DNA of 63,804 nucleotides, filler included, from Reclinomonas americana ATCC 50394 (Eukaryota): assembly GCA_048213135.1 (NCBI GenBank). It is 6 parts of 5 records of this genome, joined end to end, with 100 filler letters (N's around TTAATTAATTAA, not from the genome) between each part and the next. Parts side by side here need not be neighbours in the genome. Positions count along the whole stretch, not along the records: positions 1 to 13,617 come from PS015634.1; positions 13,718 to 23,393 come from PS015635.1; positions 23,494 to 43,698 come from PS015636.1; positions 43,799 to 51,058 come from PS015636.1; 2 more parts are not named here. The stretch is one strand, 5' to 3'. The translations under genes and the position numbers were made by a program. Each line of letters begins with the position of its first letter. Position 1 is the first letter of the stretch. Positions 1-50,900 of the stretch are shown one piece after another. Below the pieces are notes generated by a model, which saw nothing but the letters and a program-made list of their open reading frames with translations, did not search any database and was not told the origin of the DNA.

Positions 1-49
1 ATCGCCTCTCTCTCTATGTACACTCACTTTTATGCTTCCTTCTCGGCAG

Positions 50-3000
50 GTACTGGTGGTGTCCGGGTGGTCCGGTGGCGGCAAGTCCGTACTTCTGCGT
101 CAGCTGACCACTCGCCTGCACCGGCGCGACGACACATTGGTGCTTTCGGCTCGTCTGGCTGGCATTCCTCGCGCTGAAGTGCTGCGCAAACCTGAAGCTC
201 TGCTGCCTCACCTCTTGCGCGAGGCCAACGAAGCGGCAATGGAAGAACGACTTCAAATGACAGAGGACGAGGTGCGTATGTGTGGGTGTATAGGTGTGTA
301 TGTGTGTGTATCTTTACGGAGACTGCATCGTGCAGTTCCGGCGTGTCGGCACAGTCGTACTGGTCCTCGATGGATACGATGAGTGTGGCGAACCACCGGG
401 CAATTTGTATGTCCACCACGAACTCGATGTTGCGACGTGTCACAGACTGTCAGTGAGAGCGCAAGAAAGAGAGCTTAACCTTTCCACGAATGCAGAGATG
501 GCCAAATGTGTTGCTGGTGGTGTCGGTGCGACGCGAGTTCATCAGCCGACTCGGCAACTTGTGGGCCGAGGAGCACTTTGTGCCAGTGGATCCGCGCCTG
601 TCGCGTGCGGCGCGTTTGCAGCAGCCGGAGCGCACGATGGCGCGATGCATGCTGCGCCTGTTTTCGAAGGACGACATTGACCTCTTTCTGCAACAGTTGA
701 GTGTGATTTCGTTTTGTGTAATCTCTTGTGCCTTGGGCTCACACTGCGCTTGTGTGCGCGAGTAGATTTGTGGAGTCACGCGCGGACCACCCGCGTTCGT
801 GGCAGCAACACAAGCAACAGATCGAGCACACGCCTGGGCTGGACGGGCTGGCGTCGTCGGTGAGTCGCTGATTGCTGAAGGAATTCGATGCTCGTCTCGT
901 TTTGTTCGTTGACCTTTGTTTCGCACATGCAGCCACTCATGTTGAACATGATTGTTGTGGTGTCGGAGGATTTGGAAAGGCTGAATCACAGCCACGCTTC
1001 TGCGCCATCTGCGACGCGTGTGACTCGTGCACGTTTGTACGAGGCGTTTGCCAAACACAAGCTGCGATGGGAATTCGAGCATCATCAGGTGCACATTCGA
1101 CAGGTGTGTGGCAGGTATCGCTAATGAGCATCTCATGCGTGGGTACGTTGTGAAATGACCACTCGGCCCGCAGCTGTATGGCGACGGGGAGTCGGAAGAG
1201 GACTTTTGCCTTCGTGTGTGGGACTTTTGCTCGGATCTCGCCGGCGAAATGATGCAGCACTCACTGACATCTGTGCGGCAGGGCGAGGTACGTTGAACGG
1301 CAACCCTATTCTCTCACTGCGTTTATCGTCTCACGCTCTCGCTGGTTTTCTGCAGCGCGTCATTGCGGAGCGACACGTGTGGGACAAGTGGTTCGACCGT
1401 GATGATCCGTCGCAGAATTCGCTTGTGCGCGCTGTTGCGTCATTTTGCACTGTGCTTGCTGCGCCATCGACGCCGCTGTGTTCATTTGCAAGAGCTGGCG
1501 CAGGCGTTGCTAAAGTGGAGCCGACTGGGGGTATCGCAACAACGCGTGGAGTTTGTGCACAAGTCTGTGCTGGAGTACTTTGCTGCGCAATCGTGGCTCG
1601 CAGATGTGCATGTGTTGGCCAACGAGGAGGCCGATTGGGAGGTGGGCGACTGCTGTGTGCACTGAGCCTTGTGGCTCGCGCAATTTTTTTTATTGATTCG
1701 CTGGTTGTCGTTGTCGCCGGTAGGATCGAGTCGACAGACTGTGCTCCAGCTTCAGTGGCCAGCGAACATTGCTTACCTCGGACGAAGTGAGTGTACACAG
1801 TACGAGATGTCAGCATGTACTTTATGCTCACTCCGCTGCCGTTCATGCAGGGTCTCAGCTCCGTTCTGTCATTCGTCGCCGAGCAAGTACGAGCCGAGCC
1901 GTCGCTGCATGACGTGTTGTGGAATGCCACTGTGGCGTCACGGAAAGATGAGAGGATGGCGGCGCTGTCATCGAGTGCAGCCAGTGCGCTGTGCCTCGCG
2001 GAGGTGCCGTTCAGTGGGCGAGATCTGTCGGGTGTACGAGTGAGGGGAGCAGATCTGCGCGATGCGGTGATGCACCGAACGGTGTGGCGAGGAGCGGATT
2101 TGCGAGGGGCGAACCTGTGCATGGCGTTTGCGCGTGAGGCTGACTTTCGGGATGCGGATGTGACGAGTGTGATGTGGCCGCGGAAGCCGTTCAAGGGGCA
2201 CAGCGATACCGTGACCTCCATAGCTGTCACCCCCGACGGGCAGCACATTGTCAGTGGGGGTGACGACGAAAAGGTGCGTGTGTGGTCTCTGGCGACTGGC
2301 GCCGAAGTGCTAAAGTTTGCTGGACATGATGCCGGCGTGTCGTCTGTTACCGTCACTCCCGACGGCAAGCACGTNNNNNNNNNNNNNNNNNNNNNNNNNN
2401 NNNNNNNNNNNNNNNNNNNNNNNNNNNNNNNNNNNNNNNNNNNNNNNNNNNNNNNNNNNNNNNNNNNNNNNNNNNNNNNNNNNNNNNNNNNNNNNNNNNN
2501 NNNNNNNNNNNNNNNNNNNNNNNNNNNNNNNNNNNNNNNNNNNNNNNNNNNNNNNNNNNNNNNNNNNNNNNNNNNNNNNNNNNNNNNNNNNNNNNNNNNN
2601 NNNNNNNNNNNNNNNNNNNNNNNNNNNNNNNNNNNNNNNNNNNNNNNNNNNNNNNNNNNNNNNNNNNNNNNNNNNNNNNNNNNNNNNNNNNNNNNNNNNN
2701 NNNNNNNNNNNNNNNNNNNNNNNNNNNNNNNNNNNNNNNNNNNNNNNNNNNNNNNNNNNNNNNNNNNNNNNNNNNNNNNNNNNNNNNNNNNNNNNNNNNN
2801 NNNNNNNNNNNNNNNNNNNNNNNNNNNNNNNNNNNNNNNNNNNNNNNNNNNNNNNNNNNNNNNNNNNNNNNNNNNNNNNNNNNNNNNNNNNNNNNNNNNN
2901 NNNNNNNNNNNNNNNNNNNNNNNNNNNNNNNNNNNNNNNNNNNNNNNNNNNNNNNNNNNNNNNNNNNNNNNNNNNNNNNNNNNNNNNNNNNNNNNNNNNN

Positions 3001-3762
3001 NNNNNNNNNNNNNNNNNNNNNNNNNNNNNNNNNNNNNNNNNNNNNNNNNNNNNNNNNNNNNNNNNNNNNNNNNNNNNNNNNNNNNNNNNNNNNNNNNNNN
3101 NNNNNNNNNNNNNNNNNNNNNNNNNNNNNNNNNNNNNNNNNNNNNNNNNNNNNNNNNNNNNNNNNNNNNNNNNNNNNNNNNNNNNNNNNNNNNNNNNNNN
3201 NNNNNNNNNNNNNNNNNNNNNNNNNNNNNNNNNNNNNNNNNNNNNNNNNNNNNNNNNNNNNNNNNNNNNNNNNNNNNNNNNNNNNNNNNNNNNNNNNNNN
3301 NNNNNNNNNNNNNNNNNNNNNNNNNNNNNNNNNNNNNNNNNNNNNNNNNNNNNNNNNNNNNNNNNNNNNNNTCCCGACAGCCAGCTAATTGTCAGCGGAA
3401 GCTTGGACAACACGGTACGTGTGTGGTCACTGGCAAGTGGCGAAGAGGTGCGACGACTGCTGGGTCACACGAATATGGTGCGGTCTGTCGCCGTTGCTCC
3501 CAACGGCCAGCTTGTGGTGAGCGGAAGTGAGGACAAGACGGTGCGCGTGTGGTCGCTGGCGAGCGGCGAAGAAGTGCACCGGTTGGAGGGGCACACTGCG
3601 CCGATAAAGTCTGTTGCCATTACCACCGATGGTGAACGCATCGTATGCGGCAGTGGCAAGGCGATGTGGGTGTGGTCTCTGGCTGCAGCCGGGAGTGGCG
3701 GACTGCTCGTTCGTGTCATCGGGTCGTTTTTGCCTGACCTGCAGGGCGCGCTGTACAAGTAA
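50..3762 (+). CDS. STAND NTPase with NACHT + pentapeptide repeats + WD40 repeats (NWD/NLR-like); multi-exon, 5' end outside window, interrupted by N-gap 2375-3371
   Basis: Walker A SGWSGGGKS (exon from 50), Walker B VVLVLDGYDE, PLMLNMI, winged-helix motif EFVHKSVLEYFAA, pentapeptide run FSGRDLSGVRVRGADLRDAV..GADLRGANL..EADFRDADV, then GH-x-V-x-SVAVTPDG WD repeats to TAA at 3760-3762. GT-AG introns restore one reading frame. Confidence 0.9.
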
Positions 3763-3946
3763 TGTTGAAATGAACGCGACCATGCTGTTGCCAATGTGCG
3801 CGTCGTTCTCTGACATGAGCGCGTGTTCAGTATCCCTTCTTCATTCTCTGACACTGGCTCACCGATTTCGCGGCTTCGAGAACACACTCGGTGACGTTCG
3901 ATGACGTGTCCTCTGGGTGCATTGCAGCCTGATCGCTGCGCCAAGA

Positions 3947-5799
3947 ATGGCCGATAATCCCACGTTGCGCGCCTCATTCTCTATCCCTCTCTTCGGCATC
4001 TCTTCCAGTCCCTCCTCTCGCCACAAACGCCTCACCGAGTTCACATACTCCTGGCAAGCCGACAAGGAGATTGTGTTCTCGGTCGCCATCACACCCGACG
4101 GCCTACACATTGTCAGCGGCGGCGATGACAAGGTGGTGCGCCTGTGGCTGCTGAAGACTGGTCGGCGAGTGCGCCAGTACAAGGGCCACACTGGCCCTGT
4201 GTTCTGTGTCGCTGTCACCCCGGATGGGCAGCACATTGTGAGCAGCGGCGACGAGAGCACCATTCGCGTGTGGTCGCTGGCCACAGGCCAACAGGTGCGG
4301 CAGCTGAGTGGACACGGAGGAGGAGTTCCGTCGATCGCGATCACCCCCGATGGACGGCGCGTGGTGACCGCGGGCTACAACATGTTCGTGGGCGTGTGGT
4401 CGCTGGCGACTGGGAAGTGCGAGCACCGATTGCAGGGCATCTACGAAGGGGTCGATGCGGTCGCCGCGTCGCCAGTCGTCGACGAGGATGAGGGGCAGTA
4501 TGTGATCGGCGTCAGCCAAACCGGTTCCATGTGCCTGTGGTCGCTGGGGAACGGCGAGGAGCCGCTGTTGGAGCACTTTGGTTCGGTTAAATGCGCCGCC
4601 TTCAGTCCCGATGGCCGGCACGTGGTCGCCGGCGACTATGACGTGGGCGTGTGGTCTCTGGATGACGCCGCGGATGTGGATTCCGACGACGATGAGATGG
4701 GCGACTGGGATCCAAAGTTCGAGACCCAACTCAATTCGGTGAGCGCGCTCGCCGTCACCCCCGACGGCAAACACTTTGTCTACGCCGATAGCGAAGGCGA
4801 CTGCGGTATCTGTTCCATGGCGAATGGCAGAAAGGTACACGAGTGGCATGCGCACGAGGTAATCGTGCAAACGATCGCCGTCTCGCCTTGCGGCAAGTAT
4901 GTCGTGAGTGGCGACGCGCAAGGAGTTATCAGCGTGTGGCAGTGGCGGGAGGAGAACCCCAAGCGCGACGAAGAGGAGATGAAGGCCCTGGGCCTGATGG
5001 CCAGCGATGACGACGACGACGATGACGAGGCAGACGGCAAGGGCAAGAGTGGCAAGAAGGCGGCAATTGCAAGCGAGAAGAGCAACAAGGCAGCAACATC
5101 AGCAGCGCCGGTGGCCGAAGCCAGCAAGAAGAAGAGGCGGAGGAGGAGGAAGAAGAACAGCAATAAGGCAGGGGGCATCGAGGACGATGGAGCAGCGTCG
5201 GCATCATCATCTACAACTGCGACAACCGCGGCTGCACCAGCCAAGGCAGACGACGACGACAAGCTGCATGGCACGAGGGTGGTCGCGTCGAATCCGGCAC
5301 TGCCACCCTTGGAGAGGATGGCAGAGGTGGCGGCATCGTTGGGGATGATTGACGGCGGGCCACTCGGTAAGGCGACTCTCTCTCTGTTATGTGGGCGTGT
5401 ATGTCACTCACTGCTGGCGACACAGACTTCTCGGCATTGTCGGCGGATGCTCTGGCGCAGCTGGTCGCGTCGGTGGAGCCCGACGTGCTGGTGGATTTCA
5501 TCGAGAGCAATGGTCTCGACTCTCTTCTCGGCGACTACAACAACCGTCGGAAGCCGGGTTCCGCGGCCGTCGCGAGTGTCGTCAAGAAGGAGGACGTTGA
5601 CGATGGCGCGGATCCGGAGGATGAAGACGACGACGGGGAAGAGGAAGACGACGATGATGATGATGACGAGTACGCCGACTGCGACGAGTACGACGACGAC
5701 GACGACGACGAGTATGCCGACTTTGACGAGTACGGCGAGTACTATGGTAGCGGGTATGACGACGACGACGAGGACGACGACGACGAGGACGACGACTAG
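3947..5799 (+). CDS. WD40-repeat protein with Lys/Arg-rich linker and very acidic C-terminal tail
   Basis: About 7 WD-like repeats (SVAITPDGLHIVSGGDDKVVRLW etc.). Intron 5367-5425 joins to the D/E/Y-rich exon ending TAG at 5799. Possible in-frame 45-nt intron at 3964-4008. Start codon uncertain. Confidence 0.8.
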
Positions 5800-5999
5800 A
5801 GAGGTTCCATTCTACATTGTTTGCATTTGCATAGTTGTTGTTGGTGCACGGCCTTTTCCTCTCGCACTGCATCGCTGCCTACTCTATGCCCATTAATTAC
5901 AAAAGCCCTTCATTGCCTCACCACATCAACTTGAGCACGAGTGAATCGAATGAAGCACAACTTCATGTCCTCTCAATCATCCCTTCTTTGTTCCCCTCC

Positions 6000-6536
6000 A
6001 TGAGCGCCGAATCACCCGTCTCACCCTCCGACTCTGCAGTCTCCGTGGTGACTGCCTACCTCGACGCCTTCAACGCCGGCAACCTGGACGCCGTGCTCAG
6101 CGCACTGGCGCCCGACTGCAAAGTCACACTCAATGCCTCTGTGCTGGCCGCCTCCTCCACCACCACGACCACTGATGCACCACCACCAGCAGCTGCTGCT
6201 GATCATGAGGACACTCGTCAAGTGGTGTGCACCTCACGCGAGGAGATGGCACCGTCGTATGTCACCGACATGGAACGCAACCTGTGTGTGCGCGTGGAAG
6301 GGCGGCCACAGGTCGAGCGACACTACAGCAAGAACGCGGACTCGCGCGATGATGACGATGGAGTTGTCGGCGTGCGAGTGACGCTGGTGACTAATGATTC
6401 GCGGCGACTGGATGTGACCTATTATGTGCATGTGCCGAGTGAGGTGATGGTGGAGCACTACATTCGCTCGGTGCGCACGGTGGGTGGCGCCGCGGCGGCG
6501 GCGACAGGCGAGGATGTGCATGAGAAGACTGAGTGA
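6000..6536 (+). CDS. SnoaL-like / NTF2-fold small protein, apparently intronless
   Basis: N-terminal VVTAYLDAFNAGNLDAVLSALAPDCKV is the typical SnoaL/NTF2 helix motif, followed by beta-strand-like segments. ATG at 6000, TGA at 6534-6536. Confidence 0.7.
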   Translation: MSAESPVSPSDSAVSVVTAYLDAFNAGNLDAVLSALAPDCKVTLNASVLAASSTTTTTDAPPPAAAADHEDTRQVVCTSREEMAPSYVTDMERNLCVRVEGRPQVERHYSKNADSRDDDDGVVGVRVTLVTNDSRRLDVTYYVHVPSEVMVEHYIRSVRTVGGAAAAATGEDVHEKTE

Positions 6537-6942
6537 AGGAGATGGAGATTGTGAGAGAATCGTTGGTCGTCGTCAGAGTTGTCGTCGGAAAAATGCCGGT
6601 GGTGGTCGACTTGCAGGTGAGTGCTTGCGTCTGCGTGGTTAGCCTCGTTTCGTTGCTCATTGTCATGGTTGTTGCGATCAGAAGTCCTCTCGTGCCACGG
6701 CTGCCAGAGCGAAAGGAAGTTTTGCTCGTCCACTCCGCGGCTGCAGAAGCCAGGCGAATTCCGCTGACTTGCCTGGCTACTTGGCCAAGAGCACCCGTTG
6801 ATAACAGGCGTTGAGCGCGCTGTACGTTGCGAGGGGCCCACTAATTCAATGGGAGCAAAGGAGCACGACCACAAACTTCAGCGCTGTGCTCCACGGACGC
6901 TGCAATCGGGCCAGGATAAACAGCGCTCTGCAGAACAACAGG

Positions 6943-6986
6943 CAAATAAGCAACAGCTGTCTTGATGACCAAGTCCAACCGTATCC
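6943..6986 (+). repeat. Short dispersed intergenic element, copy 1 (copy 2 on the minus strand at about 53673-53720)
   Basis: AAGCAACAGCTG(T/C)CTTGATGACCAA(GT/CG)CCAACC..GTATCC is shared between the two loci, about 47 kb apart. Confidence 0.65.
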
Positions 6987-7183
6987 GACAGCGGCACGTG
7001 CACGGTTCTTGTGCGCGTTTGCTCTCGGAGCTTCGAACAAGGCGAGAAGGCACTGCGATCTTCATCGAATAACACAGACACATGCACTGCACTGGGCTGC
7101 TACTGGCCTCTGTTCCAGCAGGCGTCCACGCGTCCGTGCCCTTGGACGGTGAGCAACGCGAAACAAACAAAACACGTTCCAAC

Positions 7184-7803
7184 ATGCGACAAACGTCCAC
7201 AAATCCCTTGTCGAAATGGCTAGAGGAGGTGCACGACAGAACAGCTTCGTCGCCACTCAGCTCGGGTATCACAAGCATCACAAGTGACAAGGCGCATCGC
7301 ATCTCGTGCGTTGCCCACAAGAACCACGCGAAGTTGCTTGACCACGAAGGAGGACGCGCATATTTCCACTCATTCAATAGAGGAGCGTCGACAATGGATC
7401 GCCCTCTGCTCTCCTCCACCAACGGAGACGGGCCTGTCTCCGAGCACAAGCAGCAGAGCAGTGACTGGTCCTCCTTGCGCACACACACTCCTCACACGAA
7501 TGGATTCGCAAGAGGAGGAGGAGAGCAAGAGTTGTTTGATGTGACTGTTGGAGCACCGCGGTCGTTGTATACCTCGGATGAGGTGTTCAACTTGTTGGGA
7601 TGGGGAAGGTGTGTGTGTGTGTGAGAGAGAGGGGTGAATGCATGCATTTTCCTGTGCTGATCATGTGCATTGTTCTCGCATTCTTGTCTCCGGCAACTCA
7701 CTGGCATTCTCACTGTGTTTTCTTTTGATTGTGGTGCCTTTATGCTCCTGTTCTTTCCAGTACTTCTTTTTGCAGTTCTTTGTCTTGTCTCTCTTCTCGT
7801 TTG

Positions 7804-7879
<76 letters not shown>

Positions 7880-8600
7880 GTACTTCTCTCTCNNNNNNNN
7901 NNNNNNNNNNNNNNNNNNNNNNNNNNNNNNNNNNNNNNNNNNNNNNNNNNNNNNNNNNNNNNNNNNNNNNNNNNNNNNNNNNNNNNNNNNNNNNNNNNNN
8001 NNNNNNNNNNNNNNNNNNNNNNNNNNNNNNNNNNNNNNNNNNNNNNNNNNNNNNNNNNNNNNNNNNNNNNNNNNNNNNNNNNNNNNNNNNNNNNNNNNNN
8101 NNNNNNNNNNNNNNNNNNNNNNNNNNNNNNNNNNNNNNNNNNNNNNNNNNNNNNNNNNNNNNNNNNNNNNNNNNNNNNNNNNNNNNNNNNNNNNNNNNNN
8201 NNNNNNNNNNNNNNNNNNNNNNNNNNNNNNNNNNNNNNNNNNNNNNNNNNNNNNNNNNNNNNNNNNNNNNNNNNNNNNNNNNNNNNNNNNNNNNNNNNNN
8301 NNNNNNNNNNNNNNNNNNNNNNNNNNNNNNNNNNNNNNNNNNNNNNNNNNNNNNNNNNNNNNNNNNNNNNNNNNNNNNNNNNNNNNNNNNNNNNNNNNNN
8401 NNNNNNNNNNNNNNNNNNNNNNNNNNNNNNNNNNNNNNNNNNNNNNNNNNNNNNNNNNNNNNNNNNNNNNNNNNNNNNNNNNNNNNNNNNNNCGTTACGT
8501 TTACGTTACGTTTACGTTACGTTCGTTCGTTCTTCGTTCGTTCTACTACTTACTTACTTTACGTTTACGTTCGTTACGTTCTTCTCTTCTTCTTCTTTCT

Positions 8601-8665
<65 letters not shown>

Positions 8666-11231
8666 TCCCTGTCGCACTGTGCTGTCTCCGGCAACTCACT
8701 GCTGGTATTCACACTGCGTTTTCAGCTGTCTTTGCGCTCGTGTGCTCTCCAATACTTCTGCAATGCCTTGTCTTGTCTCCCTCTCCGTCGTCTGTCTCTC
8801 TCTCTCTCTCTCTCTCGCTCTCTCCTGTGGTTTCCCTTCGTCCTTGTCTCCTTTCCTCTCCTCTCGTCTCTCCGTCATCTCCTTCACGCTCTCACCCTCC
8901 TTTTGCCCCGCAGGTACCAATGGGGCATCATGTTTCTGTGTGGCTCCACATGGGCCGTGGACGCGGCGGTGCGTTTCCGCTCCCACTGCCCTCGCGCTGG
9001 TGCTGCTCTTGTTTGCTGACGAGTTTGTGATGAGCAGGAGGTGCTGCTCGTCTCCTTTCTCATGCCCATATTGCGCGACGAATGGAACATTTCGCGTGTG
9101 CAGGAGAGCTTGCTGGGAGGTGCGCGTCGCTTCCAATCACCTCGCGCGCGCGCTCTCTCTCATCGTAAAACACAGGACTGACCTTCTTCGGCATGATGAT
9201 CGGGGCGCTGACGTGGGGCATTGTCGGCGACAAGTTGCGCCGCCTCTCACCGCGGTGATTTCCTGTTGCCCGCTGCATCTCTCACCTTTGTGTTTCGCCA
9301 CAGATACGGCCGGAGACGTGGCTCACTGTGTGTGACTGCATTCACCGGTCTTTTCGGCTTTGTGAGCGCCTTCTCCCCCAATATCTGGGTGCTCATGGTA
9401 ATCGCAAGTCGCCCTCACACATCACGCATGCCTGCACAGTGGCTGACACGTGTCGTCCTCGCATTAGTTGTTTCGACTCCTGCTGGGCATCGGACTCGGC
9501 GGTGCGCCAGTCACCTTCAATTTGTTTGCAGAAATGGTGCCGGCATCCGCACGTGGCAAGACGCTGGTGGTGGTTGAGGGCGGCTTCTGGACGCTCGGCT
9601 CTGTGTTCATTGCGGGTCTTGCCTGGCTCGTGATACCACCACTCGGGTTGCGTGCGCTCGTCGCTGCGAGGGTGAGAGATAATACTCGTCCCTCACGTTT
9701 ATTTTCAGGTGGCGGTGGTTCCTCGCCCTCAGCGCCGTTCCCACCATTCTCACTTTCGTGCTCTACGTGTTCTTCATGGTGAGCGACTTGGTCAGCGTGG
9801 GCACCCGAAGAAAAGCAGCACCTAACACCTTGCTGTCATGCAGCCCGAATCACCTCGCTATCTATTAATCAGTGGTCGACATGCGGAAGCCGAGCGCGTG
9901 CTACGAGTGCGTTTTTCTCTCTCTCTCTCTCTCGCTTTGCGTGTGTTTGTGCCTCAGGATTTTTTATTCTCGCTGCATCCGTGTTCTCACTTCGTTTTCA
10001 CACAAATTTCTCTCTGCTCCCTGTTCCCTGCCAATCCTTCTCCCTTCCGTAGTGCCCTTCCATTTTTTCTCGATAGGCCTTTTTGTGTGCACCGTTCCCC
10101 TCCCTGGCTCCTCCCCTGCTCCTCTCCCTGCTCACCCGTCTGTCGCTGCTCTTCCCCAAGACATTCATCTCTCTGTCCACCCTTCTTCCTCTGTCCTCGC
10201 TCTTCTTTACCCATCTCTCTGTCCACCCCTCCCCCTCTGCCCCTCCCCTCGCCATGCTCCTCTCCCTGTCCACCCTTTTTTTCGTCTCCCCTCCCTTCTG
10301 TGCTCGTCTCCCTGCCCACTCTTGTCCCGCTGCGCTACCCCAATGCATCCGTTCCCTGTACACGCTTTTCTCTTCGCCCTTCCCCCTCTCTTCCCTCCGC
10401 TCTTCCCCCTCTCTTCCCTTCCCCTTCTATGCCCCTCTCCCTGTCCTTCCTCTTCCATGCCCCTTCCCCCTGCCCACCTCCCCTCCTCGACAGCGCGTGG
10501 GTCGCGTCAATGGACGACCCCTGGACGAAAACGTCGGCCTCATACCCTACACACCAAGCACTGAGGACGTGCGCGGCCGCGCTTCACTTCTCGAACTCTT
10601 CTCCCCCGAATACAGGCTCATCACGCTTCTGCTGTGGGTCATCTGGGTTTGTGCTCTCCCGCCTGCGCCTCATGAAAGCGACTCTTCTCACGATTCGTGC
10701 AGGCCGCGGACACGCTGTCGTACTACGGTGTCAGTCTGATCACGCCGTCGTACTTTGCCACCATCTCCTCCAGCATCTACCTCAGTGTGTTTCTGACTGC
10801 GATTGCTCAATTGCCGGCGCTCCTCGTCGTGTTCTTGATTGTGGATAAGTTTGGAAGGTGCGTGGGATTACCAACAAAAGACTCTGCTTGTGCACGTGCT
10901 CACCTCACCACATTCGACTTGCAGGCGGTGGACCCTGGCCCTCATGTTCTTCCTGTGCGGCGTGAGCATGGGTTTCCTGCTGATGGAACACATGGCACCG
11001 ACCTGGTTCCTCATCCTCATGGCCGTTATCGCTCGCGGTACTGGCCAGGGCGCCTTCACCACCACGTTGCGTCCTAGCGTATGGGGGTGGGCTGGTGGAA
11101 GTATGCCGACTCACGAGTCCAAACACAGCTACGTCTACACACCGGAGGTGTACGCCACGGTGGTGCGCAGCACGGGTCTCGGATCTGCCAGCGCAGTCTC
11201 TCGTCTCTTTGGAATCGCCACGTCGTTCATT
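7184..11231 (+). CDS. MFS transporter, SV2/SVOP (synaptic vesicle 2-related) family; multi-exon, 3' end in gap
   Basis: Spliced product contains LGWGRYQWGIMFLCGSTWAVDAA, GIVGDKYGRR, FRLLLGIGLGG, FAEMVP..RG, LGWRW, PESPRYL, DKFGRR and YVYTPEVYATVVRSTGLG. Confidence 0.9.
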
Positions 11232-11916
11232 NNNNNNNNNNNNNNNNNNNNNNNNNNNNNNNNNNNNNNNNNNNNNNNNNNNNNNNNNNNNNNNNNNNNN
11301 NNNNNNNNNNNNNNNNNNNNNNNNNNNNNNNNNNNNNNNNNNNNNNNNNNNNNNNNNNNNNNNNNNNNNNNNNNNNNNNNNNNNNNNNNNNNNNNNNNNN
11401 NNNNNNNNNNNNNNNNNNNNNNNNNNNNNNNNNNNNNNNNNNNNNNNNNNNNNNNNNNNNNNNNNNNNNNNNNNNNNNNNNNNNNNNNNNNNNNNNNNNN
11501 NNNNNNNNNNNNNNNNNNNNNNNNNNNNNNNNNNNNNNNNNNNNNNNNNNNNNNNNNNNNNNNNNNNNNNNNNNNNNNNNNNNNNNNNNNNNNNNNNNNN
11601 NNNNNNNNNNNNNNNNNNNNNNNNNNNNNNNNNNNNNNNNNNNNNNNNNNNNNNNNNNNNNNNNNNNNNNNNNNNNNNNNNNNNNNNNNNNNNNNNNNNN
11701 NNNNNNNNNNNNNNNNNNNNNNNNNNNNNNNNNNNNNNNNNNNNNNNNNNNNNNNNNNNNNNNNNNNNNNNNNNNNNNNNNNNNNNNNNNNNNNNNNNNN
11801 NNNNNNNNNNNNNNNNNNNNNNNNNNNNNNNNNNNNNNNNNNNNNNNNNNNNNNNNNNNNNNNNNNNNNNNNNNNNNNNNNNNNNNNNNNNNNNNNNNNN
11901 NNNNNNNNNNNNNNNN

Positions 11917-12445
11917 AATTGCTGATCGGCGGGCAGGCGCGCAGGATCGAGAAATGCAATCAGTTGTCGTCGATGAGCAAGCAGCTTGCGCGATCGGTAC
12001 GGCTCGTGTCGACCATAGAAGCCACCATTGATTACTGTGCTCACAATGAGCGAGTGAGTGAGTGTGAGTGTGTGCAGAGAGTCTCACCGGGAATCATTGC
12101 TTGCTCCAAGAATGCCTCTCCGTTGCGATAGTCGACAAAGGCACCGGCGAGAGACGAGGTTCCCGGTCGCTGAAGAGCCTTGACCTCCGATCCAAGCAGT
12201 GAGAGTCCACACTGCACGCACACACACACGCGTGTGGCACAGTCAGACAAGTCTCTCTCTCTCTCTCTCGCGTGCATGCATACACACACCTCAATGCTGT
12301 CCATGATGTGATATCGTTCAGCGACGCGCGGGTTGCGCACGAGCATGCGTCGCTCGTCGGAAGTCGATGTCGACAGCGCAGCGCTTTGTTGCCATGGTCG
12401 TCGAACAGTGGAGAGAAGTGCGAGTGCGCGTGAGCGAAGAAACAT
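11917..12445 (-). CDS. smpB: SsrA(tmRNA)-binding protein SmpB with N-terminal mitochondrial-type targeting presequence; exons 12445-12290, 12211-12088, 12034-<11917; C-terminus in gap
   Basis: Spliced: MFLRSRALALLSTVRRPWQQSAALSTS..LVRNPRVAERYHIMDSIE|CGLSLLGSEVKALQ..SLAGAFVDYRNGEAFLEQAMIP|VINGGFYGRHEPYRSRKLLAHRRQL. This follows the SmpB consensus N-x-x-A-x-x-x-Y-x-I..E-x-G-x-x-L-x-G-x-EVK, NGE and H-x-P-x-R-x-RKLL-x-H. GT-AG introns at 12289-12212 and 12087-12035. Confidence 0.9.
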
Positions 12446-12512
12446 TTCCGAATCAACAAGCAGGAGGACAGTCGTGAAGGCAACAGTGTTGGTGTTTACT
12501 GAAGTCTTCCTA

Positions 12513-27938: not shown

Positions 27939-30900
27939 CTCTCTCGTGCCCCCTGCCAGTCCGCTCACTGCATTCGCTCTCGCGCGCACGCACTCGCACA
28001 CACTCCACTCTCTTCTGCACACACGCGCACTCCTCTCTTTCCCTCTCATGCGTCCTCCCCGCCAGTCTGCTCATTGCATCCTCTCTCATTCCGACTTTCG
28101 CACACGTACGCACTCCACTCACTTTCCCACATGCTTCTCTTCTCCGTTTCTCGTGCCTTCTCGCATCCCCTTTCCGCTTACACAGGCCCCCGAACCACGC
28201 CCCATGACCAAGCTGCCGGCCAGACTCTTCCGCGATTACGCGCCCGAGGTCTTTCTCTCTCCAATGCACTCCTCTCAACCGGTGGTGGCTCACTTTAATT
28301 TCATGCAGGGCTCACTCCACACCATTCTTCGCACGTGCCTAGTGTGGAAGCAATCGCAAGGCTTGCGCGTGTTCAGCTTTGCCACGCTCAGCAAGCGCCA
28401 GCAGTATCTGGAGCTGCTGGACCTCATTCACACGTCGCTGAAGGTGTGTTCCTCTCGCTCTCTCTCTCTCCACGTGTGACCGCCGGCTGATCACCACTTC
28501 TCATCACTCGCAGGAGGCCAACCAAATGCCGTCGGTGCGCGTGTATCTCGACCCGCGAGTGCTCGAGGGCGAACGCCGCCGGTACGAGGAGATGGTGCAG
28601 AGCTTGGGTGCGTGACCATTCTGTCGATAGTTTCTCTCTCCTCATCCTCCTCCTTCCATGACTGACGAGGCCCTGCATGCGCACAGGAGGCGAGATGATC
28701 ACTGAGCCCTCCAGCGGGCGGAAGAAGAAAGGGTTGCGTCCGTGATGACCTGTCGCTCGCAGTTGACGCGCTGAAGATTCACATGGCCTGCGCAGACCCA
28801 CCACCACGCTGCTGGTGGAGCCGGATCCGCCGCACCTCACAGAGGAGGCCACGGGTGGTGATGATGAGCACCCGCTGGAGGAGCCGTGGCTACGTGTGCT
28901 GGAACGGACGGGAACGCAGAGCTACGTGCATTGGTGGTACTACCCGGACTCGTACGATGAGTGGCGGCCGAGTGCGGAGGTGCAGGTGAGTGGCAGAACT
29001 GGTTGTGTTTCGGCATCCGTCTTGTATCAGCGTGTGTGACTCTGCTGATTTGTTTTTGATCTCTCTCTCTCTCTCTCCTTCTTGCATTCTCCTGTGTTGG
29101 TGTACGCATCCTGCATGTCGCTCATTCAGATTGCACATGCACCACTCTTCTGATTTGTTTTTGATCTCTCTCTCTCCTTCTTGCATTCTCCTGCGTTGAT
29201 GTGCGCAGTTTTGCTCCAGGTCACACATTCAGATTGCATACGTGGCACTCTATTGTGCCATGTTGCCCTCTGTCCCCCTTCGCACCTGTGTTATTGATTA
29301 ATTTCCTTCTGAGTGTATTACTCCAACTCTGACGATGACCTTCTCTCCCTCTCCCGTCCTTCTCTCTCTCTCTCTCTTTCACCCTCTGCCTTCCCCATCA
29401 CCCTCACCTCTCTCTCTCTCCTCCCCCTCTCTCCTTGCAGGGCGAAGACCCCGTGCCGCCCGTGCACCGCGACGGAAAGCCTTGGCGTGTGGTGCGGCAT
29501 CCATTATGTCTCCCCGCACCTGACTCCTGTCTTAATTCCTCCACCACCACCACCACGCAGTACACGCGATACCTGCGCGACTCGCATCGTTTCAATGAAT
29601 GGATGAACGAGGAAGATTACGATCTGGATGCGGAGGACGCCGACGCCGATGCCGAGGCTGGCGTAGATGCTTCGTCATCTGCTCCGGTGGTGAGTCTATG
29701 TCCTCCCATCACCGGCGCACTTGCTCGTGTTTCCTTATGGGGTTTTCTCGTATCTAGCAGCGACGCTCGGGAAGGCCGCGCAAGCAGACGCAGCGAGTGG
29801 TGTGTTCTTTTGACCGCTCTCCGAAACACAATTCCCTGCCATCATTCTCACTGTGCCTCTGTTTGTATTTCATCTCAAGGCCGCCGTTGAGGTCAAGGTG
29901 TGTATCGGCATCGCGACTGCACATCGATCGCTCGTGGATCATACTTCTCATCCTTCTGCGCAGACGGAGGAGAGGAAAGTCGGTCGACCGCGCAAGCGTC
30001 CACTCACCACTTCCGGTGCGTTGTGTCTCCCTTTCCGCTCTCATGTCGTGCGCACACAATAACTGTGTTCCGGTTGGCAGATGATGAAGCCGACGGAGGC
30101 AAAGATGAACGCCCGAAGAAGCGACGTCGTCGTGCTGCTGGCCGCCGTGATGATGATGACGACGAGGATGGCAGCGATGACGATTATGTGGACGACGAGG
30201 AGGATGCAGCAGAGGAGGAGGAAGACGAAGACCGATCGATCGCATCGTCGGTCAGTGTGTGTTTTGTGCTCGCAAGAAAGTGATTCGCTCTTCCCTCAAT
30301 GTCGACAGCAGATGGACGTCGACGGTACCACAAACGTGCGCGGCACCCAGATCACCATCTCACGCTCCTCTGGCTCGGGAAGTGGCAGCGCGGCAGCGGC
30401 GTCGGCCGCGGCAGGCAGCAGTGGTGAGCGTGGTGTGCCCCAAGTCCGACCAGTTGTGGTTCCGTCGCATGCACGATGGTTCGAGCGCGAGGCCGTGAGC
30501 GATGTGGAGAAGACGGCGTTGCCGGAGTTCTTTGACAATCGCAATCCGCAGCTGACGCCGGAAATGTTGCGTCGCCACTGCGAGCGAGTTACACTGCGCT
30601 TCCACACACTCACACCCCGGGTTCATGCAGCTACATGAAGATTCGCAACTTCATGGTCGACGCGTACCGGTCGCGCCCAGAGGAATACTTGTCGGTCACA
30701 TTCTGTCGCCGCAACATTGCCGCCGACGCCTATCGTATCATGCGGTGAGTGAGCAGGTCTTGGTGCGCAGGTTGGGAGAGGTTGTGGCTCATGTCGCGCG
30801 CACGCAGTGTGCACCAATTCCTCGAGCACTGGGGTTTGATCAATTTCTTCGACCAGTTGCGGCGGCCATACTTCCCCGGTCCGCTCAGCTCGTCGACGAA

Positions 30901-32715: not shown

Positions 32716-32835
32716 GGGAGCAGCAGGCCGAGTTGCGAGGAGCATGAATGAGAAGCTTGAAGGAGGAGGAGAAGAAGAAGGAGAAACACAATGAAATCCG
32801 ACAGTCGTGACAGCTTCATTCGTGTCGGAAATCAA

Positions 32836-33273
32836 ATGCTGTTCGCACGCGTGTGCACGGGCCTGTGCGCCGCCGCACTGGTGTATCCACGCACGCACAG
32901 AATGCAAGCGACAGAGAATGAGGTGAGGCAGGGGCCACAGAGAGAGAGAGAGACTGCATGTCTGATTCACACACATGTGCACGCACACAGGCTGCTCCTC
33001 CCTCGCCTCCACAAGAGCACTCTGCGCACTTGCTCTTGCCTGCGGGAAGTGTCGGCATTCTGCAGGGATCTCAGGCCTCCAACTGTGAGTGAGTGATTGT
33101 GAGTGCGAAAGAGTGGCAAGTGACTCTTGACTGTGTTCTCCTCAGATGCTCGTTTTGTGGCCTCGCAACCGGCTTCTGGGATGCTTTATGTGGCCTTGTC
33201 ATCAGTGCCGGTCGACCAGCGAGATGTGCGAGAGCGATTCTGTGCGCAAGTGATCGAGGTGCGCATCGCTCAC

Positions 33274-33311
<38 letters not shown>

Positions 33312-36241: not shown

Positions 36242-36277
<36 letters not shown>

Positions 36278-38673: not shown

Positions 38674-41600
38674 ATGTCATCGCGACCGCCGCCTCCGCCA
38701 CCACCACCACCACCACCCTCCGCCTCCTCCTCCATTGCCTCCTCACCACCCGCAGGAACCGTGCATCGACATCCGGCTCTGCGATTCGTCAACTTCAATG
38801 CAAGTTGGGATGACAAAAGTGCATCGCAAACCCCATCACAGTCGTCACCGTCGTCGGTGGCGACTGTGCCAATGCGAGTTGCTTCCTCTCCGGCGGCGAG
38901 CACCGCTACCACATGCACAACTGTCACTGATGGTGCGTGCGCGCGTTCTCCCCGACTGCTTGATTCTTTCACACACACGCACGCACGCACGCACACGAGC
39001 AACGATCAACAACGTGTTCTCTCCTTTGCTCCCTTGCTCTCCCTCTCTACTCACTCCCTCTCTTCTTTGGTCTCTGTGTCATCCATCACATGTTTCCAAT
39101 TTCAGTGCGCGCCACTGCCAATGGCGTGGAGAAGCGCACGACGTGCAGCTGTGCCGCGGACATTGTTGCGCTTCGGAAGCAGATGACGCAGTTGTGCGAG
39201 ATGGGTGCGTTGAGAGAGAGAGACGCGCTTGATGTGTGTCCTCACTCTATGCATGCCCATTGCAGTGACGCATCAGGAGCGCAGGAGCCGCCTGATTATG
39301 GAGAGCCTAGAGGTCTGTGTGCCCTCCCTCTCGCCTGTCTGCCATCCTCCCTCGCGCGCTTCTCATCATTCACTGCGCGTCGCCAGAAACTCTCGCGAGG
39401 CCAGCCGGTGGACTTTGCGTCGGCTGGTGATGGAGGCCAGCAGGCTGTACCGGCGGTGGTCGATGCACACCGCAAACGATCGCTGGAGGTGCGTGAGGGT
39501 GTGCGCTGCCTGTCGACTCAAGCGTCGGTACTGATTCCGTCGTCGACTCAGCAGCCCTCGCAGGCAGATGCAGCTGGTCGTGGCGAGGGCGAACATTCAC
39601 CGCCGAAAAAGGTGTGTCGACTGCGCAGCACGCACGCTGCATTTCTGTCGATGCACGCTTGTTTGGTAAACTTATTGTGCATGCGTAGCGCGGCAAGACG
39701 GGCCGTGCCGCGGTGGCAGGGAAGGTGAACAATACTGGCCAGCAAAAGAAGGAAAAACCGCAAGTTGCGCGTGTCTGCAAGTGTGTCTCCATCAATGCAA
39801 CGCACACATGTCGTAACTTGTCTCCTGTGCTGCTCGTAGCCGAACCAACGGAAAAAGTCGATGAAGAAGGAAAAGGAAGAGGCGGATTTCGTCGATGCCG
39901 GCAACAAGGTTGACGGATCGGTATGTTGGACTCGTTCGTGTGGTGGAGGGAGGACGACTGCAAAGTCAACGACCTCCTCTTGTGTCGTCTCTGCAGGTCT
40001 CTGGAATCGACCACGATGAGCACATGTCGCCGTCAAAGGTACGTCGATCAGCGCACAACGATCGACGCGATGATCCTCTTACCCTCCTCCAACTACTCGC
40101 AGAAATCCAGTCACGCGGCCGACGTGGAAGGTCTCAGTCGGGGTGACAAGAGGGTGCTGGAGGCGTTGCAAGTTGCGTTTGTGTGTGTGTGCTATGCATG
40201 TACCTCACCTAGGCCGCTCACCGCATGGTGTATGTGTGCGCTCATAGTGTTGCAACCGAAAGAGGGTATTGGTGAAGGCATTCGGCGTTGTGGCACCGTT
40301 TGTGCGGCCCGACACTGTTACCTGTCACAAGCACCTGCTGTGTGAAGTCGCTTGCGACGACTGCGGGGTGTGGCTGTCTGGATCGGAGCAGCTGTGGACA
40401 GCGATCATGATGTCCATGGGTCGCAGCCTCGACTCCATGGTCAGTCGTGCACGCCACAACATTCCACTGTCCGTAGAAGGCGTACTCAAGAGAATGAGTG
40501 ACTACATTGCGGTGCGTGTGTAAGTGTGCGTGGTCGTTTCGAGTCACCTCGTCAATGACACTGCCGTTTGCAGGAGAGTGGACTCCGTGGAACTGCACTG
40601 TCGGACGTTTTGGACAGTCCCTTGATTCCGTTGGACGCGAGTGGATACTCGGAGGTTTGACGAGTGCACGTTATGCGTGGGCGTATTTCATCGCTAATGT
40701 CCTCGGCAGGAGTCAATGCCGGCGGCGAACGGTGGCTCCCAAGAAGAGGACCCGCTGCGGGCGTTTATTGTGCTGGCCTCGGAAGCCATTCGCGAGTGCC
40801 CTGGCATCACAGCTGCTCTGGCCCGCGGCGGTTGCCTCTCGCCTGCGGAAATCACCCGTGCCGTCGAGTGGTGCAACTCGAGAGATTCGCAACCGTCTCC
40901 TGCACCCAAGATTGCAAAGAACAAGAAGTCGGGAGCGCAGGAGAAAAAGCTTGGTGCAGCGGCCGTGCCTTTGCCCAACGGCAACAGTGTGGCAAAGTCG
41001 GTAAGTAGGTGCCACAGGCAATGCTCTCGCCAACCATGCGCTGACCCCGTTGTTCTGCATAGGTTGATGGTGGCGCTCGACAGCAGCGTGCGGCACAGGT
41101 ATTGATTCGCGCGCACGTGTGTATGTGTGTGTGATTACTCAGCGCACCTTGTGGTTTGCACAGCCGCAGCCGCTGAGCGCAGAGGAGACGGAGCTATTAG
41201 AAAAACTGCTGGTATTTGCTTTGCCTTTTCGCTCTCCCCGAGATCCTGCAAGCGCTCAAAAAAAACCCTTGTGCGTGTATTGGCAGGCTTGCAATCGGAG
41301 GAAGATTCTGGTGCAGGCATTCGGTGTCATGGCACCGATTGTGCTCAAGTCCTGCATCTGCCGTCATCAGAGCATACTTTGCGAATTCGCCTGCAAAGAC
41401 GTGGGCATCCCGACGTCTGGAGCAGGATCTCCGTCACCCGCAGTCGTGCATGCGTTTGGTGATCGGCTTGGCGACNNNNNNNNNNNNNNNNNNNNNNNNN
41501 NNNNNNNNNNNNNNNNNNNNNNNNNNNNNNNNNNNNNNNNNNNNNNNNNNNNNNNNNNNNNNNNNNNNNNNNNNNNNNNNNNNNNNNNNNNNNNNNNNNN

Positions 41601-47960: not shown

Positions 47961-50900
47961 TCACTCATCGTACAGGCCTCGTGGAACACGGATGTGCGAT
48001 GCTGAGGTGTCCATCGACCGCAGAATGATCGACGACGCCTCCACCTCGGGGAACACGAAAAAGAACCGCGTGATGACACGCGACGCGTCGGGGACGACGT
48101 GGATTCCTGAGTGTGCTGTTGTCGACGATCCGTTGATGACCTCGCACATGGCCATGCACGTGATCCGGCCGGAAAACATGCTCTTCGTCCAGCCCTGTTC
48201 AATCGCAGTGTCAGTGCTTCTGATGAGAGAGAGAGATCTACACGCGCGTCGCTGTCACACGCAACTGTTCCGGGAGAGCAGTAGCCTGCACTTGTGCTCA
48301 TCATATCCGCCCTGCACACAAAAATGAGCTGCTGTGTCGGTGGGCGAGAAGCTGCAATGGAACGCACATGTAGATGCCGGCGCCGCAAGCCGCTCCATGC
48401 AGCATCATGGATGTGTTGCCTGCGCAGAAAAAAGGAAGTGAGTGTGCGCTACCCGGTGACTCTCTGTGGAACACCAACGCAACTGGCGTTGATGAGACCC
48501 TTGCGCATGATATTCAAAAAGTTCTCCGTATACGAGCCTGCAAGCAGCACGCAGTCAGCGGTGCGAATCTCCACAACCGTCTACTTAATTGCACTCACCG
48601 TGGAACGCCAAAAACGATCCGTGTTTCTCTTTGAGAGACTGGAACAAGGCCTCCTTTTCTGGAGTGGCAGTGAGCATGAGGTACTGGAACTTGGTGGGGA
48701 TGTCTTTCAGTTGCTGGCGGCGGGGAACATGACATCCACGATGAGCAAAATGAGATGCGTCACGCGCACACACAGATAGAGCACTGAACCTTTGCGCGAG
48801 GAATGGCCCGCAACACGGCACGGTTGCTGGAGACCAGCCATCGCAACAAGCGAAATGCTTCGGCCCCGACGAGCGATCGCAACGCGGCATCGTCAGCGCA
48901 TGCGGCCATGTCGGAGAGCGCCGGGAGCGAATTCAGGCAGTCAATCTGCGTGCAAGGGTGAACAGCAAATGCAAGAAGCAGCAACACCGCGATCATTTTT
49001 CTCCCCACAAACCAGTTCGGTTTTCAGCTTAAGCTTCTCACTACCGCGCACGAAATCGCCCGGGAATGGATCAAGCAGAATGTCACAGCGCGACGACATT
49101 GCAGCTGCATGGCGCGCACGTCAGAGACGTAATCGCTGCTCGAGCAACCGACTCAACGCACCAGCAATACACAGGGAGATCAGCAAGTCTATTGTGTCGT
49201 AGTTGGTGCGAATCTCGTGCGCCAGGGAGGTGCCGAGACCAAAATCCTGCGCGCCACACAATGAGAGACTCACACGAGCACAGCTCTCTCTATCAGAAAC
49301 ATTGACGCAACGGCGTACGTGATACGGCAGAGGTCGTTGTTGCACGGAAGCATCTTCACCGTCTCCACGTCGTGCGGTGCATCGCACACCACGCAGAATG
49401 AGGTCGCGTTGAAGAGACGAATGTGCATGTATTGGACGAGGCGGACGAGCAGATTGGGGTGGTTCACGAGACGCGGGTTGAATTCAATCGGCGGCGGGGA
49501 ACTGTCGTAGAACTCGACAGGATTGACCGTGGCGGCCGCCGAGGAGCTTGTGCCGAAAGTGTCGACAGGCTCGGCGTCGCCGCGCGTCACTAGCAACCGG
49601 ATCGCTTCATCCTGCGAGGGGGCGCACATGGTGAGAAGAGCAGAGCAGCGCGCGGGAGAAGGCGTCGGTGGCGCACCGTATCCCCCTTGGCCGTAGTCAG
49701 AGCACGAACGACGGCGGCGCGCGCAAAGCCCAGATCCATAATGGCAGCAATGTCACTCGTCGTGGCGTAGGATGTGGACATGGGGGGTTCGACTGGTGGG
49801 CGCGGTGGCGACGGCGGCGCGGCGTCGGCGGCAGCGGTGTGTTGTTTCTTCTGCGAATATGGGGTGAGGAGAGCGATGATGAAAATGGGGGGGAGAGGGG
49901 GCGGCGAACCTTTGTCGCCACTGGAGAGGTGTCGTCGGAGCTCACAGAAGAGTCGACCATGCGCTGCATGTTCTCCAGCCATGCGTCCTGATCCGGTCCG
50001 GGCTTCATGAGCATGGTGAAGCTGCGGAACAGGGGAAGGGGGTGACAAGGGGGAAAAGGGTGTGAGAAGGAGAGGGAAGGGAGAGGGTGGGGAGGGAAGC
50101 AAAGGGAGAGAAGGAAAGGCAAAGAGACAAAAGGCAAGGAGAAAGGAGAGAGGAGGAAGGGAGACGAGAGAGGGCAGGGAGGGTGAGAAGGAGAGGGAAG
50201 GGAGAGGGCAGGGAGAGAATGAAAGGGAAAGACCAAAAAGGCAGGAAGAGGGGAGAGAGGCGGAAGGGAGACGGGAGAGGGCAGGGAGTAAGGCACGGAG
50301 AATGGGAGAGGGCAGGGAGAGGGAGAGAAAGGCAGGGAGAGCGAGATGGCAGGGGGAGGGAAGGGAGAGGCAAAGAGAGGACAGAGAATGCGCAAAGAGG
50401 GGGAGTGAGAAGGAAAGGGAGACGGGAGAGGAAAGGCAGGGAGAAGAGAGAGAGGAGGAAGGTAGACGGGAGAGGGCAGGGAGAGAGAAGAGAAAGGCAG
50501 AGGGCGAGAGGGGGAAGAGAGAGTGAGAGGGGGTAGAGAGAGAGAAAAGGAAAGGGAAAGCGAGGAAAGGCAGAGAGAAGGGAAGGAGTGGGAAGCGAGA
50601 GGAAAGAGACAGAGAGAGGGGGGACGGGCAGTGAGAGGGCAGGAGAAGTGGAGAGACACGAGAGGAGTTATCAGTGGCAACTACGATGGCATGCGGAGAG
50701 TTCACAGAGACTGACGGAGAAGGAAGAGAGGCGCATGAGGATGGCAGACAGAGAGAGCTGAGAGAGCACNNNNNNNNNNNNNNNNNNNNAATTAGTGCAT
50801 GCGGAATGCGTTACACACACCCTGTTTTCCTCGCAGCCAGCGCCGATTGCACGTCACTGCAGGGAGTTTGATGTTTCGTATGAGATGCGCGGACGAGTTT

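Follow-up and report, generated by a model that had tools for sequence, protein, structure and literature searches.

A known kind of intron has a 5′ splice site, or donor, that is read by the small nuclear RNAs (snRNAs) of the spliceosome in a non-canonical register, and the present analysis concerns an abundant class of introns beginning with the word GTTGCG(T) in a 63,804-base stretch of the draft genome of Reclinomonas americana ATCC 50394 (GCA_048213135.1), referred to here as the window. Roca et al. reportedly described in 2012 human 5′ splice sites at which pairing with U1 leaves a U bulged at +2/+3, and Roca and Krainer are said to have described in 2009, in Nature Structural & Molecular Biology (NSMB), a shifted (+1) U1 register at a small set of atypical human sites. 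U12-type introns carry the donor RTATCCTT and the branch sequence TCCTTAAC, the donor being a long rigid word without an exon consensus. The passages on registers in Tan et al. (2016, NAR (Nucleic Acids Research), PMC4856993) report human sites in both the shifted and the +2/+3 bulge register, with 68 predicted sites (54 after curation) of 201,541, about 0.03%, assigned to the bulged +2/+3 U1 register, and with the validated non-canonical registers together making up 1.5% of sites. As presented in the relevant part of a 2024 study (PMC11162779), U1 only roughly marks the site and U5 and U6 set the cut, which was always found five bases upstream of the U6 pair, with four at the tandem donor of STAT3. 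No displaced U6 register had been reported before that year, and work on how snRNA pairing relates to the position of the cut still depends on a few exceptional human sites. A rigid donor consensus, GTGCGTG, is given for Ostreococcus outside chromosome 2 in the portion of Irimia and Roy (2008, PMC2483917) that deals with it.

As far as those passages extend, the GTTGCGT class is like each of these systems in some respects. It shares with the human bulge sites a consensus with one extra U after GU and a conserved G at +6; the human sites keep their exon pairs and amount to about 0.03%, whereas the class lacks the exon-final G and consists of a single word (GCG at +4..+6) that opens 16/174 predicted and 6/23 homology-placed introns. 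In the shifted (+1) register, as would be the case here, the pairs are displaced by one base, G+1 replaces the exon-final G and the cut stays at GU, but the register applies to few sites in human and here a fixed heptamer forms a major class. At the STAT3 donor the distance from the cut to the G that pairs with C42 of U6 likewise departs from the usual five bases; there a distance of four bases, at one site, was shown with a suppressor U6, and the present class would have six bases at many sites. Ostreococcus also has a GTGCGT-type consensus and a strong, lineage-specific donor word, but is intron-poor with G at +5, whereas the window is intron-rich, its ordinary donors are degenerate and its rigid word has G at +6. 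U12-type introns are similar in their rigid donor word without exon consensus and different in that the word is unrelated; the branch site, 3′ end and length of the class are those of ordinary introns. No description of a GTTGCG(T)/GUUGCG(U) donor consensus was found in the literature, judged from titles and abstract openings with subscription journals and supplements outside the scope; a mention in a genome paper could have been missed. Sites of this kind are already known. The novelty would lie in one fixed word that serves a tenth or more of introns unaided by the exon, and in a six-base distance from cut to U6 pair in routine use.

The GTTGCG donors are confirmed as real by statistics and protein homology, at roughly one intron in ten and about one in four of the homology-fixed introns, and form the major class that the first-pass annotation had proposed. 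The wider count comes from a donor-agnostic run of a Viterbi gene finder, self-trained from Pfam-confirmed open reading frames and requiring only GT at the donor. Among its 174 introns the commonest donor hexamer was GTTGCG (16), followed by GTGAGT (14) and GTGCGT (10). GTTGCG is commoner among donors (16/174) than among GT sites at large (60/7143, 0.84%; binomial p 2.9e-12), and its odds ratio relative to the sense-strand non-donor GT sites of the predicted genes (22/3280) is 16.5 (p 2.1e-12). The smaller count rests on 23 introns placed by homology, namely 13 in the N-terminal part of CHD1, those at 14866 (+), 18588 (−) and 30566 (+), and seven in a gene for a transporter of the MFS; GTTGCG opens 6/23 of these and GTTTCG 2/23.

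The word itself is also enriched in the window. The hexamer GTTGCG occurs 60 times compared with 44.6 +/- 7.0 in shuffles (2/100 reach 60), and the heptamer GTTGCGT 25 times compared with 9.66 +/- 3.06 (largest 17; 0/100 reach 25). Of these heptamers, 12/25 act as predicted donors in the agnostic run, 15/25 once the homology-rescued sites 11066, 14866 and 15768 join the agnostic calls, and ∼20 with weaker candidates, the overall estimate being ∼17-20 donors. A further run with a donor table learned from the first one placed GTTGCG at 25/182 introns and used 17/25 heptamers; this run is self-reinforcing and served solely as a candidate list. For comparison, the agnostic donors include 14/107 occurrences of GTGAGT and 10/76 of GTGCGT, and GTTGCGT is the most donor-specific word in the window. 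The first-pass annotation had described the class as any ordinary donor with an extra T after GT; it is essentially the one word GTTGCG(T), as GTTGAGT is a donor at 1-2/7 occurrences and GTTTCGT at 2-3/9, though GTGAGT is the commonest ordinary donor.

The 20 GTTGCG coordinates first listed (14 on the plus strand, 6 on the minus strand) are all present on their strands, as are GTTGAGT at 696, which the agnostic run called, and GTTTCGT at 14700, which CHD1 homology fixed. As donors the 20 fared unequally. The agnostic run called 13 at the exact donor and left seven (1434, 3964, 11066, 14866, 15768, 24934 and, on the minus strand, 19011); homology rescued 11066 and 15768 and, in part, 14866, while 1434, 3964 and 24934 are weak and 19011 appears in no run. 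Members beyond that list are 48483, 57563 and 57729 (all on the minus strand, agnostic run), probably 48265 (−) and possibly 19559 (−). The introns and candidates are as follows, with lengths in nucleotides (nt).

429..495, plus strand: GTTGCGA intron, 67 nt, phase 0, in the STAND NTPase gene; agnostic run.
696..765, plus strand: GTTGAGT intron of similar type, 70 nt; agnostic run.
1434..1503, plus strand: weak GTTGCGT candidate with ambiguous acceptor (61 or 70 nt); learned-table run only.
3964..4008, plus strand: doubtful GTTGCGC candidate, 45 nt; learned-table run only.
9234..9303, plus strand: GTTGCGC intron, 70 nt, phase 2, splitting GDK/YGRR in the MFS gene; agnostic run and homology.
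9647..9708, plus strand: GTTGCGT intron, 62 nt, phase 2, splitting LG/WRW in the MFS gene; agnostic donor and homology.
11066..11128, plus strand: GTTGCGT intron, 63 nt, phase 2, in the MFS gene; homology, read through by the agnostic run.
14700..14771, plus strand: GTTTCGT intron, 72 nt, in the chromodomain region of CHD1; CHD1 profile.
14866..14938, plus strand: GTTGCGT intron, 73 nt, in CHD1; CHD1 profile, firm against GT alternatives only.
15768..15827, plus strand: GTTGCGT intron, 60 nt, phase 0, in the SNF2 domain of CHD1; CHD1 profile.
18526..18588, minus strand: GTTTCGT intron, 63 nt, in the C-terminal part of CHD1; agnostic run and CHD1 profile.
18976..19011, minus strand: GTTGCGT candidate, 36 nt (or 69 nt, to 18943); in no run.
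24159..24227, plus strand: GTTGCGC intron, 69 nt, phase 1; agnostic run.
24934..24993, plus strand: weak GTTGCGT candidate, 60 nt, phase 2; learned-table run only.
28733..28795, plus strand: GTTGCGT intron, 63 nt, in the SMARCC-like gene; agnostic run.
30566..30630, plus strand: GTTGCGT intron, 65 nt, phase 2, splitting TPE-I-YMKIRN in the SWIRM domain; agnostic run and homology.
39764..39839, plus strand: GTTGCGC intron, 76 nt; agnostic run.
40172..40247, plus strand: GTTGCGT intron, 76 nt; agnostic run.
44519..44603, minus strand: GTTGCGT intron, 85 nt, paralogue copy A; agnostic run and paralogue alignment.
44832..44894, minus strand: GTTGCGT intron, 63 nt, paralogue copy A; agnostic run and paralogue alignment.
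46895..46961, minus strand: GTTGCGT intron, 67 nt, paralogue copy B; agnostic run and paralogue alignment.
47162..47235, minus strand: GTTGCGT intron, 74 nt, paralogue copy B; agnostic run and paralogue alignment.
48195..48265, minus strand: new GTTGCGT candidate, 71 nt, in the PARP-like gene; learned-table run.
48420..48483, minus strand: new GTTGCGT intron, 64 nt, in the PARP-like gene; agnostic run.
49247..49311, minus strand: GTTGCGT intron, 65 nt, in the PARP-like gene; agnostic run.
57499..57563, minus strand: new GTTGCGT intron, 65 nt; agnostic run.
57664..57729, minus strand: new GTTGCGT intron, 66 nt; agnostic run.

Several of these sites have competing readings. An in-phase GTGAGA 24 nt downstream of 429 would give a 43-nt intron, leaving the donor at 429 unproven; at 1434 the agnostic run picked the in-phase GTGCGC at 1425, 9 nt upstream, and at 3964 it took GTAATG at 3759 with the same acceptor. 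Stop-free in-frame read-through is possible at 24934, which has a typical CTCAT branch point and CAG, and in-frame read-through is possible at 19011 (−), where the CHD1 profile is uninformative; 18878 (−) is likewise not settled by the profile. At 9647 the agnostic run joined the donor to another acceptor, and homology prefers the 62-nt form. The exon upstream of 48265 (−) encodes ADMMSTSAGY, which we take to fit a PARP motif.

Other occurrences of such words lie outside these introns. Three GTTGCGT words fall outside predicted coding introns, at 42637 and 54679 on the plus strand and at 6281 on the minus strand; downstream of the word at 54679 the sequence is rich in CT and CA, and an intron of an untranslated region could begin there. 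An excess of GTTACGT (8 compared with 1.9 expected) comes from short GTTACGT/GTTCGT-like tandem repeats at 8494-8580 and 55423-55465 (+), which are not donors.

Judged by protein homology, the GTTGCG junctions firmly placed are those at 9234, 9647, 11066, 15768 and 30566, with 14866 placed only relative to GT alternatives; the motifs GDK/YGRR, LG/WRW and PEI/YMKIRN do fix the donors at 9234, 9647 and 30566, as had been asserted from the sequence alone. For CHD1, alternative splice models were scored in bits on a profile (45/120 homologues fetched with one exon); this profile tends to reward the removal of non-conserved segments, and the introns that it added in the acidic N-terminal region were left uncounted. 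Removal of 15768-15827 gains 20.7 bits, the best of 219 candidate additions, whereas a GT donor at 15765 gives +13.2 (7.5 bits lower) and a GC donor three bases on is 4.2 bits lower. At 14866 the donor is 5.9 bits ahead of the next GT donor, and the two GTTTCGT donors in CHD1 lead the next alternative by 9.0 bits (14700) and 8.9 bits (18588, minus strand). Per-exon Pfam scans were too insensitive for junction tests, and alignment of the CHD1 read-through to PDB chains stopped at the junction and gave nothing decisive.

In the MFS gene, three of the 7 proteins found with a 51-residue exon (P0243, P0246 and P0247) are colinear with the products of splicing at GDK/YGRR, LG/WRW and GAFTTT/YVYTPE, and read-through of 11066-11128 faces a 21-residue gap in P0243 and P0247. 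The donors at 9234, 9647 and 11066 are the best of 11, 9 and 19 alternatives, by margins of 7, 14 and 21 score units, and a GC donor at +3 scores 11, 14 and 21 units lower, respectively. Aligned to the SMARCC2 chain 6kag_B, the exon before the intron at 30566 runs to residue 136 and the next exon begins at residue 138; the one-residue gap is the split codon and is found in 7/7 solved SWIRM chains whose match to the two exons extends as far as the junction, the others being 6l9j_B, 6lth_N, 5gjk_A, 6kz7_A, 2fq3_A and 6uxv_D.

CHD1 homology also places three firm introns without G at +5, all on the plus strand and all after an exon-final AG: 16296-16369 (GTTCTT), 17117-17189 (GTCTTT) and 15513-15577 (GTGGGG), with margins of 26.7, 22.9 and 9.7 bits over the next alternative. 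By this comparison, ordinary donors in the window can be highly degenerate on the intron side.

The introns of the window are very dense and short (median 67 nt), with a 3′ end of CAG or TAG and a branch site of the CTCAC/CTCAT type ∼18 nt upstream of it. The GTTGCG class differs from the other introns solely at its 5′ end. CAG or TAG closes 19/19 class introns and 105/113 others; a YTNAY branch motif is present in 17/19, at a median of 18 nt from the 3′ site compared with 19 nt in the others, and the branch sites are CTCAC or CTCAT in both groups; pyrimidine content is 0.59 and 0.61, and the median length is 67 nt in both. Among 140 agnostic introns of 40-200 nt, GCG at +4..+6 occurs in 16/41 donors with T at +3 and in 0/99 without (Fisher 2.4e-10), a comparison that the first-pass annotation had proposed, and T follows at +7 in 12/16 class donors (18/22 in a wider list). 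An exon-final G precedes 2/16 class donors (3/22 in the wider list) compared with 39/45 ordinary GT[AGT][ACT]GT donors (p 1.6e-7), and neither set shows a preference at -2 to -4. In two paralogue pairs the exons are conserved and the intron bodies have diverged with indels, yet GTTGCGT is kept. Pairing between the 5′ end of class introns and their own 3′ part (-7.15) is no stronger than in swapped controls (-7.10 and -7.22). On these sequence features, the class is one of genuine major-spliceosome GT-AG introns, with a 5′ splice site that is a single fixed word, GUUGCGU, and without an exon consensus.

These sites are donors, and they form a distinct, abundant class without an exon G; which RNAs read GUUGCGU, and in which register, is a matter that we infer. 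A displaced, or shifted, register on ordinary snRNAs is favoured with moderate confidence. GUUGCGU can be viewed as the ordinary G/GUGCGU, with the exon-final G included, in which the second letter has changed from G to U. The snRNAs would then dock on the same heptamer frame and pair with ..UGCGU at +3..+7, which is equivalent to skipping one of the two U's. Cutting would take place at the sole GU of the word, a base upstream of where an ordinary donor is cut. Once U1 leaves, U6 would hold G+6/U+7 in place of G+5/U+6, and the cut would lie six, not five, bases upstream of that pair. The two words are indeed one letter apart, and no exon signal is seen at -1 to -4; the exon G may be missing because the first G of the word plays its part in the shifted register. 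The simple bulge at +3 suggested in the first-pass annotation predicts that the exon-final G is kept, which is the case in only 2/16 donors as against 39/45, and the loss of this G therefore fits a shifted register better than a bulge that keeps the exon pairs.

Several observations weigh against the shifted register, or against the calls on which it is built. When duplexes with the canonical U1 5′ end AUACUUACCUG were computed with RNAduplex in any register, the class averaged -1.3 kcal/mol, weaker than 1500 random GT sites (-2.5) and than GTGCGT and GTGAGT donors (-6.0 and -8.8), as energies that leave out pseudouridines and proteins. At such a value, pairing with an unmodified canonical U1 alone cannot explain so specific and abundant a signal. 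Under a passive displaced register, moreover, GTTGAGT donors should be no rarer than GTTGCGT donors, yet they are rarer. Together, the weak U1 pairing and the rarity of GTTGAGT imply that something reads the word specifically, the simplest candidate being a changed or second U1 5′ end. On the side of the calls, 14866 and a GC donor 3 nt downstream at 14869 are only 0.2 bits apart and hence indistinguishable, and the sites 1434, 3964, 24934 and 19011 (−) have no independent support. The gene finder had hand-set terms for acceptor, branch point and length, all on the 3′ side only, which were chosen after introns had been inspected, and its acceptor term favoured YAG and branch features. The sample is one 64-kb window with two paralogue pairs, and 4 of the 16 agnostic calls represent two duplicated events. 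A broader proposition can be offered tentatively, as possible but well short of probable: that the lineage has re-tuned the reading of its 5′ splice sites, either through a U1 (sole or second) that matches GUUGCGU or through U1 and U6 that routinely work one base out of register, the cut at a tenth or more of introns then lying six bases upstream of the G:C pair with U6. Such a lineage would be a natural example of register and choice of cut site being uncoupled throughout a genome.

A dedicated or rewritten snRNA that reads the word directly is a rival account, held to be unlikely without being far-fetched. A U1, as sole or second copy, would have a 5′ end complementary to GUUGCGU, such as ACGCAAC, or in a smaller form of the same idea a change at the position opposite U+2 would do; the pairing would be canonical to a non-canonical U1 and not a displaced register on an ordinary one. 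A word that is near invariant over seven positions and more donor-specific than any other in the window, that pairs with canonical U1 less well than random GT sites do, and that has GCG, not GAG, after GTT would suit sequence-specific pairing of this sort. An ACGCAAC end would, by our reasoning, also pair with the ordinary G/GUGCGU with a single mismatch, in keeping with the exon-final G of 39/45 ordinary donors. However, ordinary donors use GTGAGT no less often than GTGCGT, which the canonical U1 end explains better, and to our knowledge the 5′ end of U1 hardly varies across eukaryotes. Searches of the window with Rfam models, including U11, U12 and U6atac, returned no snRNA at the gathering threshold or at E 1. 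The same search bears on the idea that these introns belong to a separate U12-like (minor) splicing system whose donor word has diverged. A rigid donor without exon consensus is reminiscent of U12-type donors, but the idea is highly improbable: the donor is not RTATCCTT-like, the CTCAC/CTCAT branch sites lie at the ordinary distance, and no U11, U12 or U6atac match occurs, the last point being weak evidence in so small a stretch.

Three further explanations have little probability. If the boundaries were mis-called, the true donors would be other nearby GT sites or GC donors three bases downstream (GTT/GCGT), and the pattern would reflect chance or composition. The modest enrichment of the hexamer (60 compared with 44.6, reached by 2/100 shuffles), the near tie at 14866, the in-phase GTGAGA downstream of 429 and the four unsupported sites are in line with this view, but a GC donor costs 4.2 bits at 15768, the cost at 9234, 9647 and 11066 is 11, 14 and 21 score units, respectively, and at 30566 the alternative adds a residue lacking in 7/7 matching SWIRM chains. 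A donor-blind finder still favours GTTGCG (p about 1e-12), and 0/100 shuffles attain the heptamer count. As an account of the class mis-calling is very unlikely, and at the homology-fixed sites mis-calling or chance is excluded, as it is by the statistics. Mobile introner copies whose end happens to be GTTGCGT would account for many introns with an identical 5′ end and for their tight lengths (57-86 nt for most); at E 0.01, however, no two of the 19 class introns show similarity past base 9, in 3′ ends and lengths they match all other introns, and even the paralogue pairs have diverged with indels, so introners are accorded only a slight probability. A sequencing artefact, in which a homopolymer miscall adds a spurious T to an ordinary GTGCGT, might be entertained for a draft assembly with 23 gaps and linker-joined contigs, but is scarcely credible: the exon-final G (2/16 compared with 39/45) shows that these are not ordinary donors plus one base, the same word stands in two diverged paralogue pairs, and errors would not single out ∼20 donors.

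If the shifted register is true, the genome would offer natural test cases of it by the hundreds to thousands and would show whether U1 or U6 has co-evolved with the word. In genomes of this sort, gene predictors built on GTNNGT-type models would put a tenth or more of introns in the wrong place, and reading through in-frame introns such as 15768, 11066 and 24934 adds 20-21 false residues to the annotated protein.

The window comprises ∼15 genes, including the two paralogue pairs, in draft sequence with 23 runs of N. Several of its genes have no assigned family; the others are the following.

1-7000, plus strand: STAND NTPase with pentapeptide and WD40 repeats.
8493-11231, plus strand: SVOP-like MFS transporter.
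11917-13466, minus strand: WD40 gene and SmpB-like exon.
13718-17478, plus strand: CHD1, N-terminal part.
19487-17795, minus strand: CHD1, C-terminal part (inverted contig).
27876-33000, plus strand: SMARCC/SWI3-like gene.
44303-46082 and 46470-about 48000, minus strand: tandem paralogue pair, copies A and B.
About 48000-50769, minus strand: PARP-like gene with a UBA-like segment.

Five identical 100-base spacers (44 N + TTAATTAATTAA + 44 N) occupy 13618-13717, 23394-23493, 43699-43798, 51059-51158 and 58243-58342. The spacer is a six-frame stop linker between contigs, and the sequences that flank it are not necessarily genomic neighbours. The C-terminal part of CHD1, with its HTH_CHD1_Hrp3 domain, lies on the minus strand at 17795-19561 directly after the plus-strand N-terminal part and is flanked by gaps at 17648-17794 and 19562-19694; this contig is probably mis-oriented in the scaffold. 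A search with a CHD1 exon yielded distant relatives only, the best at 73% over 63 residues and the named matches, from red algae, plants and fungi, at about 60%; a protein atlas and a longer search with the SMARCC-like gene gave no match. A metagenome scan for relatives returned two low-complexity matches only (L001 and L002), which were not used.

The exons of copies A and B are about 85-90% alike, with diverged introns and a signal-peptide-like start common to both; the pair belongs to no recognised family, and one segment presumably resembles a PH domain. For the gene at 57729 a P2X-like identity was considered and is unsupported, as the read-through gave no relevant PDB match. A short island between two gaps, at 37380-37477, has weak, below-threshold Rfam matches to microRNA precursors on both strands and is most likely merely a palindromic stretch. 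The homologue search with the WD40 gene gave generic bacterial-like repeats only. Adjoining that gene, and merged with it by the gene finder, is an exon at 12044-12718 (−) that matches SmpB, the bacterial-type tmRNA (transfer-messenger RNA)-binding protein (Pfam E 7e-7); a nuclear gene for SmpB hints at an organelle that has a tmRNA system.

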